This document shows positions 1-23,016 of a DNA stretch of 41,984 nt, piece after piece. Location of the stretch: positions 1-41,984 of the forward strand of contig JAYTSD010000009.1 in assembly GCA_043745805.1 (NCBI GenBank). The letters are read 5' to 3'. The position numbers were made by a program, and so were the translations under genes. Positions within the stretch are counted from its first letter, which is position 1. Each line of letters opens with the position of its first letter. This DNA is from Fibrobacteria bacterium (GTDB lineage Bacteria > Fibrobacterota > Fibrobacteria > UBA11236). Below the pieces are notes generated by a model that made no database searches, was not told the origin of the DNA, and saw nothing but the letters and a program-made list of their open reading frames with translations.

Positions 1-59
1 GATACCACAAACCGTTTGAATTCTTCGGTAAAATTTCGCTGATTGACCAGTTCTTTCAT
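1..59 (-). CDS. 5' end of a hypothetical protein (MKELVNQRNFTEEFKRFVV...), first gene of putative cassette C; runs off the window
   Basis: Minus-strand ATG at 59 with GGAG (68-65) upstream. An in-frame alternative ATG lies at 83. It starts just after the minus-strand core GTTGTCC (96-90). Confidence 0.55.
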   Translation of the reverse strand, partial: MKELVNQRNFTEEFKRFVV

Positions 60-89
60 TATGTCTCCGAATTTTGTAAACATAATTCC

Positions 90-338
90 GGACAACACCG
101 TTGGCCCGATTTGCGAGGACGAGAACAAAGTGGGGCGCAAGCCCCCGGAGTGAATGTCCGCAGCAAGCAATGAAGATGGGGTGAGGCAAACTGACGTAGA
201 CCACAGGAGAAGACTTCAGAGAAAGTCAGTGCAGCCCGAACCCCAATCTGAATTGCCGGGCCAGCCCCAAAACCAATTTGGGCGAAGCCCCGGAGCGCGG
301 GTGGAAACCCGCGTGGAGCACCCTGGGCTGTGTTATAC
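90..338 (-). mobile_element. Long structured attC-like recombination site 1 (249 bp)
   Basis: Bounded by GGACAAC (90-96) and GTTATAC (332-338). Nested stems: TGGCCCG/CGGGCCA, ATGGGG/CCCC(A)AT, ACTGAC/GTCAGT, GGGC-GCAA-GCCC, GCGGGT-GGAA-ACCCGC. Shares GCAATGAAG, GACGTAGACC and CTGAATTGCCG with the site at 3676-3935. Confidence 0.75.
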
Positions 339-372
339 GCTGGTTTACCTCCCAGTTTTCTTGGGGGGTGGG
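332..372. repeat. Left terminal inverted-repeat arms of cassette B
   Basis: 332-351 GTTATACGCTGGTTTACCTC is the reverse complement of 3663-3682 at 18/20. 361-372 TTGGGGGGTGGG is the perfect reverse complement of 3594-3605. Confidence 0.9.
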
Positions 373-585
373 CTTGTCTTCTCTTCGCGCACCGGTTTTT
401 CCTGTTTTTGCATTACGGGGTTGGGTCCCCACTCTTACGAAATTGAAGTAATTACTTTCTTAAGGCATGGCGAAGGGCCGTAAGCATTTTGCCATGCGCA
501 CGTTTGTACCGCTTTTCTTTTCTTGTTGGCATAAGCAAAGAATGGTTATTTTTCTATAATTTAGGCCTTTTGAAGGCCATGGTAA

Positions 586-1695
586 ATGTTTCTTGATAAG
601 AACTGGTTGTCCAAGAAAACCAAACCCCAGGAAAAACAGGCTGGGAAAATAATTGGTATTGCAGATATTTTTTCTGGTTGCGGTGGGATGTCGCTTGGAG
701 CGATAGAGGCGTCAATGCTTCACAATCTTCGACCAAAGATTAAATTAGCCGTGGAAACAAACACCTACGCAAGTACGGTTTATAAAAACAACTTTTCTGA
801 TAAAATAAAAGCCTTATTAAATTCTAAAATTGAAACGATTATCGATTCCGATCCAGGCGAGCCGATTTCCAAAAAAGAAAAGCTCCTTAAAGCGAAAATC
901 GGAAAAATCCACATACTTCTTGCTGGCCCTCCTTGTCAGGGGCATTCACGTTTAAATAATTATACAAGATCTAATGACCCGCGAAACTCTTTGTATCTAA
1001 AAGCTGTGCGAATGGCAGAGATATTTAAGCCTGGTCTTGTAGTTATCGAAAATGTCGTTAATATTATTAAAGATAAAGATCGAGTAATTAACCAAAGTTC
1101 TTTGGCGCTTGAAAAAATTGGATACGAAGTAGAAAACTTAACTGTGCACCTTTCTAATTACGGAGTTGCCCAAAATCGAAAACGGCATATTCAAATTGCT
1201 ACTCTTAAAAGATTCAAAATTGACTTCTCTAACTATAAAGTAAAGTATGTTCTTTCTGATGTGATTTCGGATATTTTGGACGAATCTGTTCTTAAGGAGG
1301 GATTGTTTTTCTCTCCATCAAAAACCAAGCACCAAAACCGCATTGATTTTCTTTTCGAAAAAAATCTTTATGATTTACCAAACAGATTAAGACCCGATTG
1401 TCACAAAGATAAACATACCTACCCATCATGCTATGGCCGGTTAAATTGGAATAAACCATCTTCTACAATAACAAGAGGGTTTAGCACCATGGGACAAGGC
1501 AGGTTTTTACATCCCCTACGAAGAAGAACCTTAACTCCACATGAAGCGTGTAGAATTCAAGGCATACCAGATTATTTTGATTTTTCTAGTGTAGAAAAAA
1601 GAGGAGAGCTGCATCTGATGATCGCAAATGCGGTTCCACCAAGAATTATTGCCTGCATCATTGACCAATACATCAAAAATATTTTCAATAAATAA
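586..1695 (+). CDS. dcm: DNA (cytosine-5)-methyltransferase
   Basis: C5-MTase motifs in order: DIFSGCGG (I), GPPCQGHS (IV, catalytic PC), ENV (VI), QNRKR (VIII), RTLTPHEACRIQG (IX), IANAVPP (X). Confidence 0.95.
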   Translation: MFLDKNWLSKKTKPQEKQAGKIIGIADIFSGCGGMSLGAIEASMLHNLRPKIKLAVETNTYASTVYKNNFSDKIKALLNSKIETIIDSDPGEPISKKEKLLKAKIGKIHILLAGPPCQGHSRLNNYTRSNDPRNSLYLKAVRMAEIFKPGLVVIENVVNIIKDKDRVINQSSLALEKIGYEVENLTVHLSNYGVAQNRKRHIQIATLKRFKIDFSNYKVKYVLSDVISDILDESVLKEGLFFSPSKTKHQNRIDFLFEKNLYDLPNRLRPDCHKDKHTYPSCYGRLNWNKPSSTITRGFSTMGQGRFLHPLRRRTLTPHEACRIQGIPDYFDFSSVEKRGELHLMIANAVPPRIIACIIDQYIKNIFNK

Positions 1696-1705
1696 AGAGG
1701 TATAA

Positions 1706-2770
1706 ATGGCATCTGGAAAAAATATTTCCGCCGTCAGAAAAAAAGCCGCCGAAAAGCAGATCGTTGATAACATCAAGGTGTTTGACTACGATACTATTGA
1801 GTATCCGATCGAAGTAATTGTTGAAAAATATTCGACAGATTTAGAAGAAGAAGAGAATGACATTTATATCCCTGATTATCAAAGAGAATTTATTTGGAGC
1901 GAAAAACGCCGCTCCAAGTTTATCGAATCAATTTTGCTTGGCGTCCCCATTCCATATATATTTTTGGCCGACGTGGAAGGCCGCAAAGAAGTTGTCGACG
2001 GCTCACAACGAATTCGCACCTTAGATGTTTTTGTTAAGGACCAACACACAATTGAAAATTTAGATCGACTAACTGAGTTAAATGGATTCAAGTTTTCAGA
2101 CTTCGACCCTGTCAGGCAAAAAAGATTTCTTAATAAGAGCTTGAAAATGATTTTCTTATCGGAAAAAACAGATAGCATCGCTCGGCAAGATTTATTTGAA
2201 AGGATAAACACTGGTAGCGACGAGCTAAAACCGATGGAAGTCTTGAAAGGTAGTCAGGGAGGTAAATTTTACAGCTATCTTGAAGAGTGTAGTAAAAAGC
2301 CTTTGTTCAAAAAACTTTGTCCTATTAGCGACAAAACAAGTATTAGAGAAGAAGGTACTGAAAGAGCTTTAAGGTTTTTTGCATATTCAGAATCCTTGGA
2401 AGGCTATTCCGGAGTAGTAAGTGCTTTTATGGAAAAGTATATGAAAAAACGCTCAAGTAATTTTTCCACAACTGAGCGAAACAAGCTTGAGAAAAAATTC
2501 AACGATATGTTGGCCTTTGTAGATAGTCATTTTCCAAATGGTTTTAAGAAAAATAACAAAACTAAGTCAACTCCTAGGGTTCGTTTTGAGGCTATTTCAA
2601 TTGGTGTTTCCAAGGCATTGGAAAAAAAACCAAATTTGACTGTAACAAATGTTGATTGGCTTGAATCGGAGGAGTTTAAACATCACACTCGCTCAGATGC
2701 AGCTAATAATAAATCTAAACTTGAAGGACGAATTAATTTCGTAATGAACAAACTTTTGGGAAAAGTTTGA
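1706..2770 (+). CDS. DUF262 (GmrS/ParB-like) domain protein
   Basis: IPDYQREFIW, FIESILLGVPIP, VVDGSQR and FERIN motifs typical of DUF262. RBS AGAGG upstream. Confidence 0.9.
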   Translation: MASGKNISAVRKKAAEKQIVDNIKVFDYDTIEYPIEVIVEKYSTDLEEEENDIYIPDYQREFIWSEKRRSKFIESILLGVPIPYIFLADVEGRKEVVDGSQRIRTLDVFVKDQHTIENLDRLTELNGFKFSDFDPVRQKRFLNKSLKMIFLSEKTDSIARQDLFERINTGSDELKPMEVLKGSQGGKFYSYLEECSKKPLFKKLCPISDKTSIREEGTERALRFFAYSESLEGYSGVVSAFMEKYMKKRSSNFSTTERNKLEKKFNDMLAFVDSHFPNGFKKNNKTKSTPRVRFEAISIGVSKALEKKPNLTVTNVDWLESEEFKHHTRSDAANNKSKLEGRINFVMNKLLGKV

Positions 2771-3489
2771 TGAAATCAGTAATAGACGATTTTAATTTGA
2801 GAGCTAAGGAAATTGATATTTATTTTCAGTTCCTAAAAGATGTTGTTGACAAAGATTCGAAACTCAGAATATCGGACGGAAAAAAATGGCGCAAACAAAA
2901 ATTTCCGGACTCGGTTCAAAAAATTCTTAAGGCGAATTTATTTTTGCTCCTTTATAATTTGATTGAATCTTCTTTTACAAAATCTTTGGAGCATATTTGT
3001 AAAACTATCAATGATCACAATCTGATTTACCCTAAAACAATTCCCGAAATAAAAAAAATTTGGGTTAAAAAACAAGCGAAATATTTTGATCCGCCCAACA
3101 AGGGAGCTTCCCTCAGGAAAGAAGACCACTTTTTGGAGATGATTGATTCGATTTCAACTCAGGTTATTTCCATTCCATCTAGTCTGGATGATTCTGGTTA
3201 TGCTGGAAATATTGATGCAAAGAAAATACGTGAAATCGGAATGCTATATGGACTTTTCGTGACCAAGGAAGTGTTTCCTGTAAAAGGAAAGGAGCTTTTG
3301 TTGGTTAAAAACCGAAGAAATGCTTTAGCTCACGGAAATCAATCTTTTTCAGAATGCGGCAGAGACTATTCCATTAATCGTCTGGAAGAAATAAAAATTG
3401 ATTCGATTTCATATATGAAATTTATCCTAAACTCGTTTAAATTAAAGGTAAACAAGAAATATTTTCAGTCAAAAAGAGTTAAAAAGTGA
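2767..3489 (+). CDS. HEPN-domain protein (MAE_28990/MAE_18760-like), putative RNase effector
   Basis: LLLYNLIES N-terminal helix, GNID, and RNALAH (Rx4H) HEPN motif. Start overlaps the DUF262 stop. Confidence 0.85.
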   Translation: MMKSVIDDFNLRAKEIDIYFQFLKDVVDKDSKLRISDGKKWRKQKFPDSVQKILKANLFLLLYNLIESSFTKSLEHICKTINDHNLIYPKTIPEIKKIWVKKQAKYFDPPNKGASLRKEDHFLEMIDSISTQVISIPSSLDDSGYAGNIDAKKIREIGMLYGLFVTKEVFPVKGKELLLVKNRRNALAHGNQSFSECGRDYSINRLEEIKIDSISYMKFILNSFKLKVNKKYFQSKRVKK

Positions 3490-3593
3490 GATGAAAACCA
3501 ATTGGATTTCGAAAATGAATTACTTCATATGAATTCGAATTGATTCTTTCCGGTGAGCGTTTTTTCTTTCTTTTGGAATTCGCAATTCTCTTC

Positions 3594-3682
3594 CCCACCC
3601 CCCAACAAAATTCAGCTTTATAAAATTGTCGGGCAAACTGATAAGTTTGACCGGCAACATTTGAGGTAAACTTGCGTATAAC
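3594..3682. repeat. Right terminal inverted-repeat arms of cassette B with intervening hairpin
   Basis: CCCACCCCCCAA (3594-3605), hairpin TTGTCGGGCAAACT-GATA-AGTTTGACCGGCAA (3626-3657), CAACATTT (3655-3662), GAGGTAAACTTGCGTATAAC (3663-3682). Confidence 0.85.
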
Positions 3683-3935
3683 GTTCGCGCCAGTAGGAAG
3701 TGGGCTGCAAGGCCATTCTCGAAAGGTGAGGATGCGAATGAAGTGGTGCGCTATCGCACCCGAAATGAGCACCCGCAGCCTGCAATGAAGCTAACCTGAG
3801 AGCAAGCGGACGTAGACCTTTGTGAAGTTCGCGCCGCTCGAAGGTTAAGCTGAATTGCCGAGAAGGCCTTGCAGCCCATTTGCGAACCCGCAATGCGAAG
3901 CATGCCCGTGGGTTCCCTACTGGCGCTTGTTGCAC
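3676..3935 (-). mobile_element. Long structured attC-like recombination site 2 (260 bp)
   Basis: Bounded by GTATAAC (3676-3682) and GTTGCAC (3929-3935). Perfect stems GCGCCAGTAGG/CCTACTGGCGC (3687-3697/3916-3926) and TGGGCTGCAAGGCC/GGCCTTGCAGCCCA (3701-3714/3865-3878). Inner branched core is homologous to site 1. Confidence 0.85.
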
Positions 3936-3968
3936 GATCGTTTCGCATTTGCATTTATTTTAGGGGGG
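3929..3968. repeat. Left terminal inverted-repeat arms of cassette A
   Basis: GTTGCAC (3929-3935) vs GTGCAAC (5114-5120). TTTCGCATTT (3941-3950) vs AAATGCGAAA (5100-5109). ATTTATTTTAGGGGGG (3953-3968) vs CCCCCCTAAAATAAAT (5035-5050). All are perfect reverse complements. Confidence 0.9.
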
Positions 3969-3977
3969 TCTTCGAAT

Positions 3978-4976
3978 TTAATTGAAATCACCGGCAATTT
4001 CGACCTCGATGCGAGATAAGCTTCCTCTGATTCTCGGGCAAGGAAGGGACATTAAAATAGAGTCGATCATTAAGAATTTTTCTTTCGCGCCCGCAAACCT
4101 GACACAGTTCATTTTTTCCGAAAATAGTTTTAGTTTATTTGTTGGGAAAATGGAAAGCAAATTATTGGCGGTAAGAATTTCTATACCTTTTCCAAACTTT
4201 ATTTTTTGTGTGTTTCCAAATAAAATGATTTTTTCTTTCTCGGTTTTCAAGTATTGGATCATTGATTCATTCCGGATTAAATGGTACGAATCGGGATCAA
4301 CTGGAGATTTTCTACTCCAGTGCCCATCATTGTTATCACGGATATCCATCTGTTTCTCGCAGAGATTTAGTGCGTCATTTTCCCCCCAAGTTATAACCTC
4401 CATGTTTTTTAAGGAATAACCTTTTTCGTTGTCAATACGGTTTACACTGGGGATTTCCTTTTCTTGTCTTCCATTTTTATCCCACTCCGCAAATAAAATT
4501 TCAAATGGCGTACTTTTTATAATCCATTCAAAAAATGTTTCGAAAGAGAGTTTCGGAAGATCGTGTCCTCTTCTTTTGCTTCGCTCAATTATTTTTTGAA
4601 ACATTTTTTTGGCTTGAATTTGGAGTGGCTTCTCTCCGATTTTAGCAGCGTTTGCCTTGTTTTTTCGCTGTAGGGTCTTTTTCCGAATTGGGAGTGATTC
4701 AACGATAACCTTGATAATGCTTTCTTTTTCAAAGAAGTATGTAGGATCACGTGGGTCAAATTTGGTTTTAGTGATTTTGCAATATGCTGAACCCAGTGTT
4801 TCTACGTTTATCACTCTTAAAAATTTAACGAAATTGACCTCATCGTTGAAGTAGTCCATGTAATCGGATTTCGATTTTAAGAGGAGCGTGGAATTCTGTA
4901 TGCATCTTCCGTAGGTGATTTTTAACTCATCATTTTTCAGATCCTTGAATAATTGGTAGCATGAATATTGATTCAT
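3978..4976 (-). CDS. Hypothetical protein with central HNH-like (beta-beta-alpha) segment; cassette A gene
   Basis: PSVNRIDNEKGYSLKNMEVITWGEN resembles the SxDRID..GY...N....T..EN motif of phage HNH-type proteins. Start placed at MNQYSC (ATG 4976, AAGGA upstream) rather than the track's TTG at 5027. Confidence 0.6.
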   Translation of the reverse strand: MNQYSCYQLFKDLKNDELKITYGRCIQNSTLLLKSKSDYMDYFNDEVNFVKFLRVINVETLGSAYCKITKTKFDPRDPTYFFEKESIIKVIVESLPIRKKTLQRKNKANAAKIGEKPLQIQAKKMFQKIIERSKRRGHDLPKLSFETFFEWIIKSTPFEILFAEWDKNGRQEKEIPSVNRIDNEKGYSLKNMEVITWGENDALNLCEKQMDIRDNNDGHWSRKSPVDPDSYHLIRNESMIQYLKTEKEKIILFGNTQKIKFGKGIEILTANNLLSIFPTNKLKLFSEKMNCVRFAGAKEKFLMIDSILMSLPCPRIRGSLSRIEVEIAGDFN

Positions 4977-5034
4977 ATTCTTTTCCTTGCTTGAATTTTG
5001 TTTTAAAGTAGAAAAGGTAAGAATCAACTTTCTT

Positions 5035-5120
5035 CCCCCCTAAAATAAATCCAAACTCAACCTTGGCTTTTCGGCTGAAAGTCGGAAAGCCAACATTTTA
5101 AATGCGAAATGTTGTGCAAC
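5035..5120. repeat. Right terminal inverted-repeat arms of cassette A with intervening hairpin
   Basis: CCCCCCTAAAATAAAT (5035-5050), hairpin TTGGCTTTTCGGC-TGAAA-GTCGGAAAGCCAA (5063-5093), CAACATTT (5091-5098), AAATGCGAAA (5100-5109), GTGCAAC (5114-5120). Confidence 0.85.
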
Positions 5121-5132
5121 TCCTGCTTACGC
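5114..5132 (-). mobile_element. attI-like primary recombination site
   Basis: Minus strand reads GCGTAAG-CAGGA-GTTGCAC, a 7-5-7 layout like attI1 CCCTAAA-ACAAA-GTTRRRY. It lies immediately upstream of the divergent recombinase, and no long hairpin follows on the integrase side. Confidence 0.6.
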
Positions 5133-5140
5133 GCACCATA

Positions 5141-5169
5141 TTTACCAATAACATAAAAACAAGTATCTT
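5141..5169 (+). promoter_or_regulatory. Putative sigma70 promoter of the integrase (possibly leaderless mRNA)
   Basis: TTTACC (5141-5146), 17 nt spacer, TATCTT (5164-5169), then 7 nt to ATG 5177. No SD visible. Confidence 0.45.
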
Positions 5170-5176
5170 ACCCGTC

Positions 5177-6022
5177 ATGAAAGAAGACTTAATCCTATCC
5201 CTGACCCGCGAATTAAAGCGCCGAAATTACAGCCCACAAACCATAAAATCATATACTTCCGCTTTAAAGGACTATCAATCCTTTTACTTAGGCAATCCAT
5301 TAAATTATAGCGAAAAAGCAGTTCGCACTTTTTTGGAAAAACAACTCGAAAAAGGATTAGCGGCTACTACTGTCAACTTGCAAATGAACGCTTTAAAATT
5401 TTTCTATCGGGAAATCGCTCAAAATATCACAGCGATGGATAATATTAAATCGGCCAAGGAAGAGAAATCATTACCCGTCATTCTTTCCCAAAACGAAGTG
5501 CAAAAAATTTTAGAAGTTACCCTTAACCGAAAACATTATTTATTACTTGCTATTGCCTACGGAGCGGGTTTACGCGTTTCCGAAGTGGTAGCGTTAAAAG
5601 TGGGAGACATTGATTTTGAACGGAACTTAATAACGGTACGTCAAGGCAAAGGGATGAAGGATAGACAAACCTTATTGCCGTCTAATATTGTACCTGAGCT
5701 CACTCGGTTTTCACTAGGACGTAACACGCAAGAACCTTTATTCGAAAGTGAGCGCGGCGGGGCATTAAGTTTAAGGACTGCGCAAAAGGTTTTTGAGCAG
5801 GCTTGTGATAAAGCCAAAATCAAAAAACAAGCGAGCTTTCATACATTGCGTCACAGCTTTGCTACCCACCTTTTAGAGCAGGGAATCGACACCCGTTATG
5901 TGCAAGAATTATTAGGCCATGAAAACATCCGCACCACGCAATTGTACTTACATGTTACTAAGCATCACCTAAGCAAAATCGCTAGCCCTTTGAATTTTAT
6001 CGGATCAAAAAGCTTTGGCTAA
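5177..6022 (+). CDS. Tyrosine recombinase, integron-integrase-like, lacking the IntI-specific insertion
   Basis: N-terminal SAM-like domain (RRNYSPQTIKSY), LPVILS, and catalytic R (GLRVSE), K (GKGMKDR), HTLRH, LGH, Y (TTQLY). Start placed at MKEDL (281 aa). Confidence 0.92.
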   Translation: MKEDLILSLTRELKRRNYSPQTIKSYTSALKDYQSFYLGNPLNYSEKAVRTFLEKQLEKGLAATTVNLQMNALKFFYREIAQNITAMDNIKSAKEEKSLPVILSQNEVQKILEVTLNRKHYLLLAIAYGAGLRVSEVVALKVGDIDFERNLITVRQGKGMKDRQTLLPSNIVPELTRFSLGRNTQEPLFESERGGALSLRTAQKVFEQACDKAKIKKQASFHTLRHSFATHLLEQGIDTRYVQELLGHENIRTTQLYLHVTKHHLSKIASPLNFIGSKSFG

Positions 6023-10641: not shown

Positions 10642-12853
<2,212 letters not shown>

Positions 12854-22841: not shown

Positions 22842-23016
22842 GCCTTCCTTCCCTCATCACTCACCTTTTTAAGGGTGTAAAGCAAATCTATCTCAAAATC
22901 AATCGGCATCTATCAGCTAATATTGCCGCAAAAAAACTTTGAACAAATTAAAATTTAAATTCATAGATACAAACCAAAAACGGCTTTATCAGTGGTTTAA
23001 TGATTTGGAAGAAAAT

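Follow-up and report, generated by a model that had tools for sequence, protein, structure and literature searches.

Probable giant branched attC-type sites beside a tyrosine recombinase gene lacking the IntI-specific insertion in a Fibrobacterota genome

The window analysed here is the whole 41,984-nt stretch of contig JAYTSD010000009.1 (positions 1 to 41,984, forward strand, called C9 below) of the Fibrobacteria bacterium assembly GCA_043745805.1 (UBA11236), a genome of 3.95 Mb in 50 contigs. Its first six kilobases contain the end of an insertion sequence, two long GC-rich elements (site 1 and site 2), two blocks of cargo genes, conserved non-coding modules at the cassette ends, and a gene for an IntI/Xer-like tyrosine recombinase (Table 1). 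The methylase, GmrSD_N/NsnA-like and HEPN genes were assigned using Pfam and PADLOC. The 349-aa ORF gave only weak HNH-endonuclease-like matches (PHROGs, E = 2e-4) and no Pfam, NCBIfam or PADLOC family. The module following site 1 is 79-83% identical to array DNA of 3 other genomes, while the module preceding site 2 is 80-85% identical to array DNA of other genomes and is homologous to the sequence after the attC-like sites on contig C4, which carries the second array of this genome.

Table 1. Coordinates of the features in the window (+, forward strand; -, reverse strand).
Position	Strand	Feature
1-99	-	End of a multi-copy insertion sequence interrupting site 1; a transposase-like ORF starts near 62 and reads leftwards
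100-338	+	Site 1, attC-type, with the 5' outer half (AAC box, L-stem 5' arm, P2 5' arm) cut off; core, 3' hairpins and GTTATAC box remain
332-338		Site 1, GTTATAC box
346-510	+	Conserved non-coding cassette-end module
about 355-372		T-run/G-run motif of this module
465-499		Short hairpin of this module
586-3489	+	Cargo of cassette 2, in reverse orientation relative to the array
586-1695		C5 cytosine methylase
1706-2770		GmrSD_N/NsnA-like protein
2767-3489		HEPN protein
3545-3675	+	Conserved non-coding module at the start of cassette 2, with a hairpin and a G-run/T-run motif
3676-3935	+	Site 2, complete attC-type site; the + strand is the folding (bottom) strand
3676-3682 / 3929-3935		Site 2, R box (GTATAAC / GTTGCAC)
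3683-3686 / 3927-3928		Site 2, unpaired spacer (GTTC / TT)
3687-3697 / 3916-3926		Site 2, L stem
3698-3714 / 3865-3881		Site 2, P2
3716-3721 / 3859-3864		Site 2, P3
3726-3781		Site 2, left arm
3782-3858		Site 2, right arm
3882-3915		Site 2, 3' hairpin
3978-5027	-	Cargo of cassette 1: 349-aa ORF in canonical orientation, reading towards site 2
5030-5115	-	attI-like region (function inferred): inverted repeat GCAACAT...ATGTTGC, hairpin and T-run/G-run, between the recombinase gene and the first cassette
5102-6022	+	IntI/Xer-like tyrosine recombinase, divergent from the array; longest ORF 306 aa, the database gene call of 281 aa starts later

A preliminary description made from the sequence alone had placed the two elements at 90-338 and 3676-3935, and had claimed that they share four motifs in the same order and that their stems are fully compensatory. 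This observation was confirmed. The four motifs, CCGCAGC among them, are at the positions claimed: GCAATGAAG is found at 167-175 and 3782-3790, GACGTAGACC ends at 202 and 3818, and CTGAATTGCCG is found at 248-258 and 3850-3860; the combined pattern matches 2 times in the window against 0 in 100 shuffles. The two elements align at 75% column identity. When folded as RNA, site 2 gave z = -9.99 on the + strand and -8.49 on the - strand, while site 1 gave -5.05 on the + strand. Across the 45 modelled core pairs (the core model is described below) the two sites share 23 identical pairs, 4 differ on one side, 15 differ on both sides with pairing kept, and 3 are not paired in this alignment because of a register shift in one helix, so "fully compensatory" is nearly right. 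The unpaired columns (45 of 60 identical) are more conserved than the paired ones (52 of 90).

The limits of site 2 are exactly its two inverted core boxes, but the start of site 1 had to be corrected from 90 to 100. Bases 1-99 are 99-100% identical at 6 contig ends of the genome (this one and five others), each followed by different DNA, and the contig depth in the source runs is about 4x higher over 1-300 than over the rest. They are therefore the end of a multi-copy insertion sequence (the start of its ORF is IS3-like, an assignment that was not tested), and the AAC at 94-96 belongs to it and not to the site. The insertion explains the absence of the outer stems, which the preliminary description had noticed; their 5' halves are missing, while the 3' halves are still present and match those of two copies on C4. 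A pattern search for the severed 5' half at another junction of the insertion sequence did not find it. The arrays on C4 and C9 could not be joined through one copy of the insertion sequence either, because the flanks do not fit and the arrays would converge.

In order to find further copies, the genome was searched by BLAST, which revealed two more long copies and one shortened copy at the end of C4. The five copies gave a consensus fold in which 41 of 89 predicted pairs keep pairing through changes on both sides. A covariance model was then built from the 152-position core and not from the full length of 269 positions, thus the outer stems were analysed only by pattern and by eye. The model found 5 hits in this genome, all in the two cassette arrays next to tyrosine recombinase genes (C9:101-3867 and C4:271172-276048), with 151 bits for site 1 (101-265) and 150 bits for site 2 (3713-3867). 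Hits were obtained in 19 of 31 other genomes of the same family (by genus: g3 15 of 15, g5 2 of 2, g2 and g6 1 of 1 each, g4 0 of 12) and in 1 of 6 genomes of a sister family, while there were none in the 1 genome of a third family of the order and none in 22 genomes of two other families of the class. In a phylum-wide sample 8 of 151 genomes were hit, this one included, again only in the first two families; nothing was found in the other 16 Fibrobacterota families sampled.

A pattern scan of a wider genome collection returned 60 stretches. Public records carrying the same element are almost all labelled Fibrobacteria/Fibrobacterota MAGs, and the model confirmed only the stretches labelled Fibrobacter-type plus three MAGs labelled Bdellovibrionaceae, Bifidobacteriales and Paludibacter, whereas the beta-proteobacterial, Clostridia, Acidobacteria and other stretches were chance pattern matches. 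The "Bifidobacteriales" MAG gave model hits at the same contig positions as one genome of the family (G008), and the Paludibacter hit is a single 1.8-kb contig.

In 39 aligned copies from 30 sources, 95.4% of 1701 cells pair and 38 of 45 pairs show double changes; 0 of 500 shuffles reached the observed values and slid controls gave 30-42.5% pairing. This alignment was fitted to the model, which favours the structure somewhat, but the margin is large. The conserved unpaired stretches include GCGAGGAYG, AGTGG, CCGCAGC, TGAG.GCAA, ACGTAGAC and TGAA..GCCG.

The preliminary description had named beforehand three outcomes that would count against its reading, and none of them occurred. A match to a known RNA family was sought in Rfam: there were 0 matches at gathering score over the whole window, and at E up to 10 over 1-4200 the only match overlapping either element was a 12-bit chance match (RF00260, E = 8.9) at 235-398. 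Dispersal of the REP/MITE type without cassette context was not observed, since the 5 copies in 3.95 Mb all lie in the two arrays, and the covariation was not lost but grew stronger when more homologues were aligned.

The ends of the elements are of the attC type. The reverse complement of site 2 reads GTGCAAC-AA-GCGCCAGTAGG...CCTACTGGCGC-GAAC-GTTATAC, and short (40-70 nt) attC-like hairpin sites lying beside the long ones in the C4 array have the same frame, YAAC-AT-GCGCCATAGC...GCTATGGCGC-GAAC-GTTR. The - strand of the window is therefore the "top" and the + strand the "bottom" strand. The exact 12-mer GGCGCGAACGTT occurs 5 times in the genome, 4 of them in these arrays. Of 75 distinct long elements taken from the loci, 64 showed both a YAAC-type left end and a GTTR right end by a simple pattern, and the 11 without were mostly at locus edges or missed by the crude pattern; the median length is 257 nt (range 233-330). 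The 10-11 bp L stem inside the boxes covaries freely across copies, for example GCGCCAGTAGG / GGCCCAGCCAG / CGCGGCATTAC with matching partners. The R box, the unpaired spacer and the L stem of an attC site are thus all present in site 2. The two or three extrahelical bases that attC sites carry in the L stem of the recombined strand are, however, absent: the L stem of site 2 is a perfect 11 bp, some copies (c4a and c4b on C4, and site 1) carry a GGG bulge on the 3' arm instead, and no conserved G/T extrahelical pattern was seen. The size also falls outside the usual attC range of about 57-141 nt with a small or modest terminal structure; about 200 nt form a conserved three-way junction and a 3' hairpin. 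Moreover, inverted repeats extend beyond the AAC/GTT boxes into both flanks, which classical attC sites do not show.

The copies lie in same-strand arrays. One contig (C85) of a relative, G013, carries 10 same-strand copies over about 20 kb, starting 1.3 kb after a recombinase gene, another (C59) carries 4, and the C4 array of the present genome mixes long and short sites. The cargo is variable: none of the cargo DNA of either array in this genome (the methylase, GmrSD-like and HEPN genes, the 349-aa ORF, SieB and RES-domain genes, a weak SIR2-like ORF and several unknown ORFs) has a match in the 31 other family genomes, while the sites and about 130-165 nt of non-coding cassette ends do match. 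One cassette is shared by two loci of different genomes, L055 and L107. Identity along it is 33% to the left of the AAC of the first site, 81% through that site, 90% over the shared 732-bp block of the cargo by BLAST (72% over the whole cargo span including indels), 90% in the last 60 nt before the AAC of the next site, 63% just after it, which is ordinary family-level likeness, and 34% beyond that site. This boundary rests on a single case, and L055 equals a contig of G021, a genome flagged as unpublished. The unit of site plus cargo bounded at the AAC boxes is what an integron cassette should look like on the bottom strand.

Both arrays of this genome adjoin a gene for a tyrosine recombinase with Phage_int_SAM_4 and Phage_integrase domains (Pfam). 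The window and C4 proteins score 215.5 and 193.8 bits against the integron-integrase model TIGR02249, below its curated cut-off of 265, and their best model is NF040815 (XerA/"integron integrase"), with 220.4 bits (cut-off 220) and 198.9 bits. When aligned to the solved V. cholerae integrase VchIntIA/IntI4 (2A3V), each protein breaks into two stretches which skip chain residues about 206-243 (window protein) and about 180-241 (C4 protein), that is, the IntI-specific additional domain near patch III. Thus the recombinases fail two defining tests of integron integrases. Since relatives of the window's enzyme at 50-57% identity are abundant ~270-aa proteins, many from Patescibacteria, named Xer or "recombinase/integron integrase", its role here is not proven.

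The C4-type recombinase is found in 16 of 31 other family genomes; all 16 are among the 19 that have the element and none is among the 12 genomes of the genus without it. These genomes are kin, so this is in effect one or two independent contrasts. Eight of 20 recombinase genes have an element within about 4 kb on the same contig, seven of these sharing the layout gene(+) then elements(-), and most of the other genes lie near contig ends on the array side. The window is the exception, its gene being divergent from the array as in the classical integron layout, while the gene is co-directional at the 7 other loci. At both loci of this genome a similar inverted repeat (GCAACAT...ATGTTGC) with a hairpin and a T-run/G-run lies between the gene and the first cassette, on C4 directly after the recombinase gene (about 12480-12560 of locus L012). 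We read this as an attI candidate, but its function was not examined, and the observations do not settle whether a complete integron platform stands at the head of the array.

Since covariation cannot distinguish RNA from single-stranded DNA folds, other features of the two strands were compared. The modelled strand carries 60 G.T pairs against 22 A.C pairs, and it folds better in 55 of 72 cores with RNA parameters and in 51 of 72 with DNA parameters. This bias is moderate, the alignment was fitted to a model that rewards G.U pairs, and with DNA parameters the two strands of site 2 fold equally well (-72.4 against -72.8 kcal/mol). The modelled strand is the bottom strand both by the end-box frame and by the cassette boundary. 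The orientation of the ORFs was only weakly informative: in 13 inter-site intervals the longest ORF lies opposite the folding strand in 7 and on the same strand in 4, while 2 have none.

Taken together, both elements are best explained, with fairly high confidence, as recombination sites of the attC kind, each closing one gene cassette of an integron-like array in a Fibrobacterota chromosome, site 1 being a copy damaged by an insertion sequence. In the proposed mechanism one DNA strand (the + strand of the window) would fold on itself when single-stranded, the two end boxes (...YAAC and GTTR...) would pair, and a small asymmetric unpaired spacer would be followed by a 10-11 bp covarying stem. 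Where ordinary attC sites have a small tip, this site would have a ~200-nt branched body: a long stem, a three-way junction with two arms, and a 3' hairpin. The neighbouring tyrosine recombinase would bind the folded strand and cut at the AAC box (G|TT on the other strand), inserting or excising the unit of cargo plus site. What our data demonstrate is the fold and its covariation, the array arrangement, the link with the recombinase gene, the absence of the IntI insertion, and cassette-sized homology that stops at the AAC boxes. It is only inferred that the recombinase acts on these sites, that recombination uses single-stranded DNA, and that the conserved loops of the branched body are determinants of protein contact or strand choice, which may stand in for the extrahelical bases read by classical integrases with the insertion that these enzymes lack. 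Recombination of the folded bottom strand was not assayed, and none was seen in the four public DNA runs (all from one study, two of them possibly the source sample), which consist of contigs only and gave no joints but loose ends at the repeat borders 99 and 334/336. The interpretation offered in the preliminary description, attC-like elements under selection for a complex single-stranded fold, is therefore supported; its suggestion of an integrase or accessory-protein scaffold remains inference, and its alternative of a structured ncRNA is not favoured.

According to this alternative, which we regard as unlikely, the branched core would be a structured RNA, either a cis-acting element of cassette transcripts or a small RNA, embedded between repeats and selected at the RNA level. 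The covariation and the conserved loops are typical of functional RNAs, and the methylase-GmrSD-HEPN operon runs on the same strand as the better-folding strand of site 2, so read-through would make that RNA; Weinberg et al. 2017 (PMC5737381) also note that the two kinds of fold cannot be told apart by covariation. No RNA data were examined. However, no Rfam family matches, the fold always includes recombination-type end boxes and sits once per cassette, cassette homology ends at those boxes, the favoured strand is more often antisense to the cargo, which is the strand that integrons recombine, and consensus promoter and terminator scans were at chance level. It is about equally unlikely that the elements are non-recombining palindromic repeats (REP/MITE-like, or bidirectional terminator or insulator units) accumulated between genes beside an unrelated recombinase. 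The palindromic symmetry extending into the flanks with outward-facing T-run/G-run motifs on both sides, the short hairpins and 75-nt indels in the spacers and the missing IntI insertion would agree with it, but the elements are not dispersed, they share one strand within each array, they co-occur with the recombinase (16 of 19 genomes with the element against 0 of 12 without) and lie adjacent to it in 8 cases, the cargo is unique while the ends are conserved, homology breaks at AAC, and terminator-like sites are at chance level. The least likely view, that a separate small mobile or structured element inserted at the tip of ordinary attC sites as a passenger, can draw on the short sites coexisting with long ones in one array and on the right arm being missing in some copies (c4c on C4, and L037) and variable in length, but the body is conserved with covariation across at least 5 genera of the family and one genus of a sister family, always at the same position and in the same orientation inside the site, and its own ends show no terminal repeats or target duplications in the alignments.

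A further reading is tentative, though not excluded by the data: these arrays may belong to a separate, so far undescribed branch of gene-cassette systems, in which a Xer-like tyrosine recombinase without the integron-integrase insertion recognises a ~250-nt branched single-stranded DNA and the conserved junction loops take over strand choice and positioning from the extrahelical bases. Such systems may be widespread in the Fibrobacterota-Bacteroidota-Ignavibacteriota group and invisible to standard integron finders. Integron biology rests on a short hairpin site read through its extrahelical bases and on an integrase with a special insertion said to be necessary for activity, and here a well-conserved cassette system appears to lack both. 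If the recombinase is active on these sites, the rules for finding integrons, an intI_Cterm profile and an attC length limit of about 200 nt, would miss a whole class of gene-capture platforms. The sites would be a rare natural example of a large, specifically folded single-stranded DNA with conserved loops, and the arrays, carrying defence genes (a methylase with GmrSD-like and HEPN proteins, SieB, and RES), are also a source of new defence cassettes in an under-studied phylum.

We found no description of integrons in Fibrobacterota: the papers listed for Fibrobacter and attC do not concern integrons of this phylum, those for Fibrobacterota are resistome surveys by their titles, and none was found for integron integrases in Fibrobacteres, although the supplements of Weinberg et al. 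2017 and Cury et al. 2016, which were not covered, could hold a motif drawing or a taxon table that bears on novelty. The DUF1874 motif of Weinberg et al. 2017 (PMC5737381) is a multistem motif with conserved internal-loop nucleotides that recurs in consecutive intergenic regions, and its authors suggested that it may be an unusual, complex attC site acting as single-stranded DNA. They saw no integrase at the array ends; here a recombinase gene is adjacent. Our elements matched no Rfam family in sequence or structure, though the presence of the DUF1874 motif in the library was not confirmed. Tyrosine recombinases without intI_Cterm next to attC sites, and CALIN arrays, were surveyed by Cury et al. 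2016 (PMC4889954). As in that survey, a Xer/IntI-intermediate recombinase without the IntI-specific region lies here beside attC-like sites, but there such enzymes co-localized with fewer than three attC sites and were judged not to be IntI, while here the same gene-then-array layout recurs in 7 loci from 7 genomes (this one included), with up to 10 long sites on a contig, the window's own locus having the gene inverted.

The attC sites of sedentary chromosomal integrons, such as the Vibrio cholerae repeats (VCR), share with the present elements the inverted AAC/GTT core boxes, the unpaired spacer, the L stem and a variable terminal structure that can be branched, as Bouvier et al. 2009 describe for the 65-bp branched VTS in VCR. 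They also share the occurrence of one site per cassette in same-strand arrays next to a tyrosine recombinase, family-specific sequence conservation within a lineage, and defence-gene cargo, described for chromosomal integrons in bioRxiv 10.1101/2024.07.02.601686. VCR sites are about 125 nt long. The sites found here, with a median of 257 nt, are about twice as long, their terminal structure is a conserved three-way junction plus a 3' hairpin with loops more conserved than stems, site 2 has no extrahelical bases, palindromic modules extend outside the core boxes, and the recombinase lacks the IntI-specific domain, which in the solved complex reads the extrahelical bases.

Both arrays of the genome border on repeated DNA. 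The first 99 bases of the window, which recur at the ends of contigs C10, C48, C5, C17 and C15 of the same genome, represent one end of a multi-copy insertion sequence that breaks the assembly, and an ORF starting near position 62 on the - strand looks like a transposase start. A comparable situation was observed at contig C4, which carries the second array (its analysed stretch is designated L012). The last ~98 bases of this contig, just after the array, recur at 96-100% identity at or near the ends of six other contigs (C8, C45, C28, C24, C16 and C47). This is probably another insertion-sequence end, so both arrays are truncated by repeats in the assembly. Further exact or near-exact GGCGCGAACGTT end motifs were detected near the starts of contigs C29, C39 and C6, and these are probably more array fragments of the same genome. 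An isolated sequence on contig C37 resembles the first ~45 nt of a long site (CCAACGTTGTCGAGGATGACTTGGGTTTTGGAGTAGGGCC) and then breaks off; it may be a remnant outside the arrays.

Every cassette starts and ends with conserved non-coding modules, which carry outward-facing T-run/G-run motifs of the TTTTTGGGGGCG type and small hairpins. Thus the palindrome extends well beyond the AAC/GTT boxes, although no function is known for these modules. In addition, a short hairpin (GCATGGCGAAG...TTTTGCCATGC) sits next to a CAAACGTT box 120-200 nt from some of the long sites. In L107, one of the two loci that share a cassette, this hairpin lies within a clean 75-nt indel relative to the other locus, L055. 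It could be a half-site or an optional module.

Positions of the features observed
Location	Feature
window 1-99; ends of C10, C48, C5, C17 and C15	end of a multi-copy insertion sequence
L012 19902-20000 (C4:277052-277149)	repeated end of contig C4, probable insertion-sequence end
window 346-510 and 3545-3675; L012 14205-14260, 15505-15570, 19700-19800	conserved non-coding modules of the cassette ends
window 465-499; L012 18150-18200; L107 about 2100-2175	short hairpin next to a CAAACGTT box
window 5102-6022	array-linked recombinase
L012 11514-12449	array-linked recombinase, paralogue
window 586-3489	three-gene unit in reverse orientation inside one cassette
L012 12633-19600	cargo of the C4 array
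C37, about 22947-22965 (+ coordinates)	isolated sequence resembling the start of a long site
C29:2297; C39:1121; C6:8810	exact or near-exact GGCGCGAACGTT end motifs

True copies of the element were also carried by records labelled Bdellovibrionaceae (L056), Bifidobacteriales (L067/L100) and Paludibacter (L098). The labels or bins are probably wrong; the 'Bifidobacteriales' MAG gave model hits at the same contig positions as G008, a genome of the family examined.

The genome has two paralogous array-linked recombinases, which are 41% identical. One of them is divergent from its array and the other is co-directional with it, while similar attI-like repeats lie at both. The cargo of the C4 array includes a SieB-family protein, a RES-domain protein, a 387-aa ORF with weak SIR2 matches and several ORFs with no family. 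In the window, the three-gene unit consists of a C5 methylase, a GmrSD_N protein and a MAE_28990-type HEPN protein. It is probably a self-expressed defence system, in which the GmrSD_N protein matches NsnA of PADLOC (E = 7e-50).
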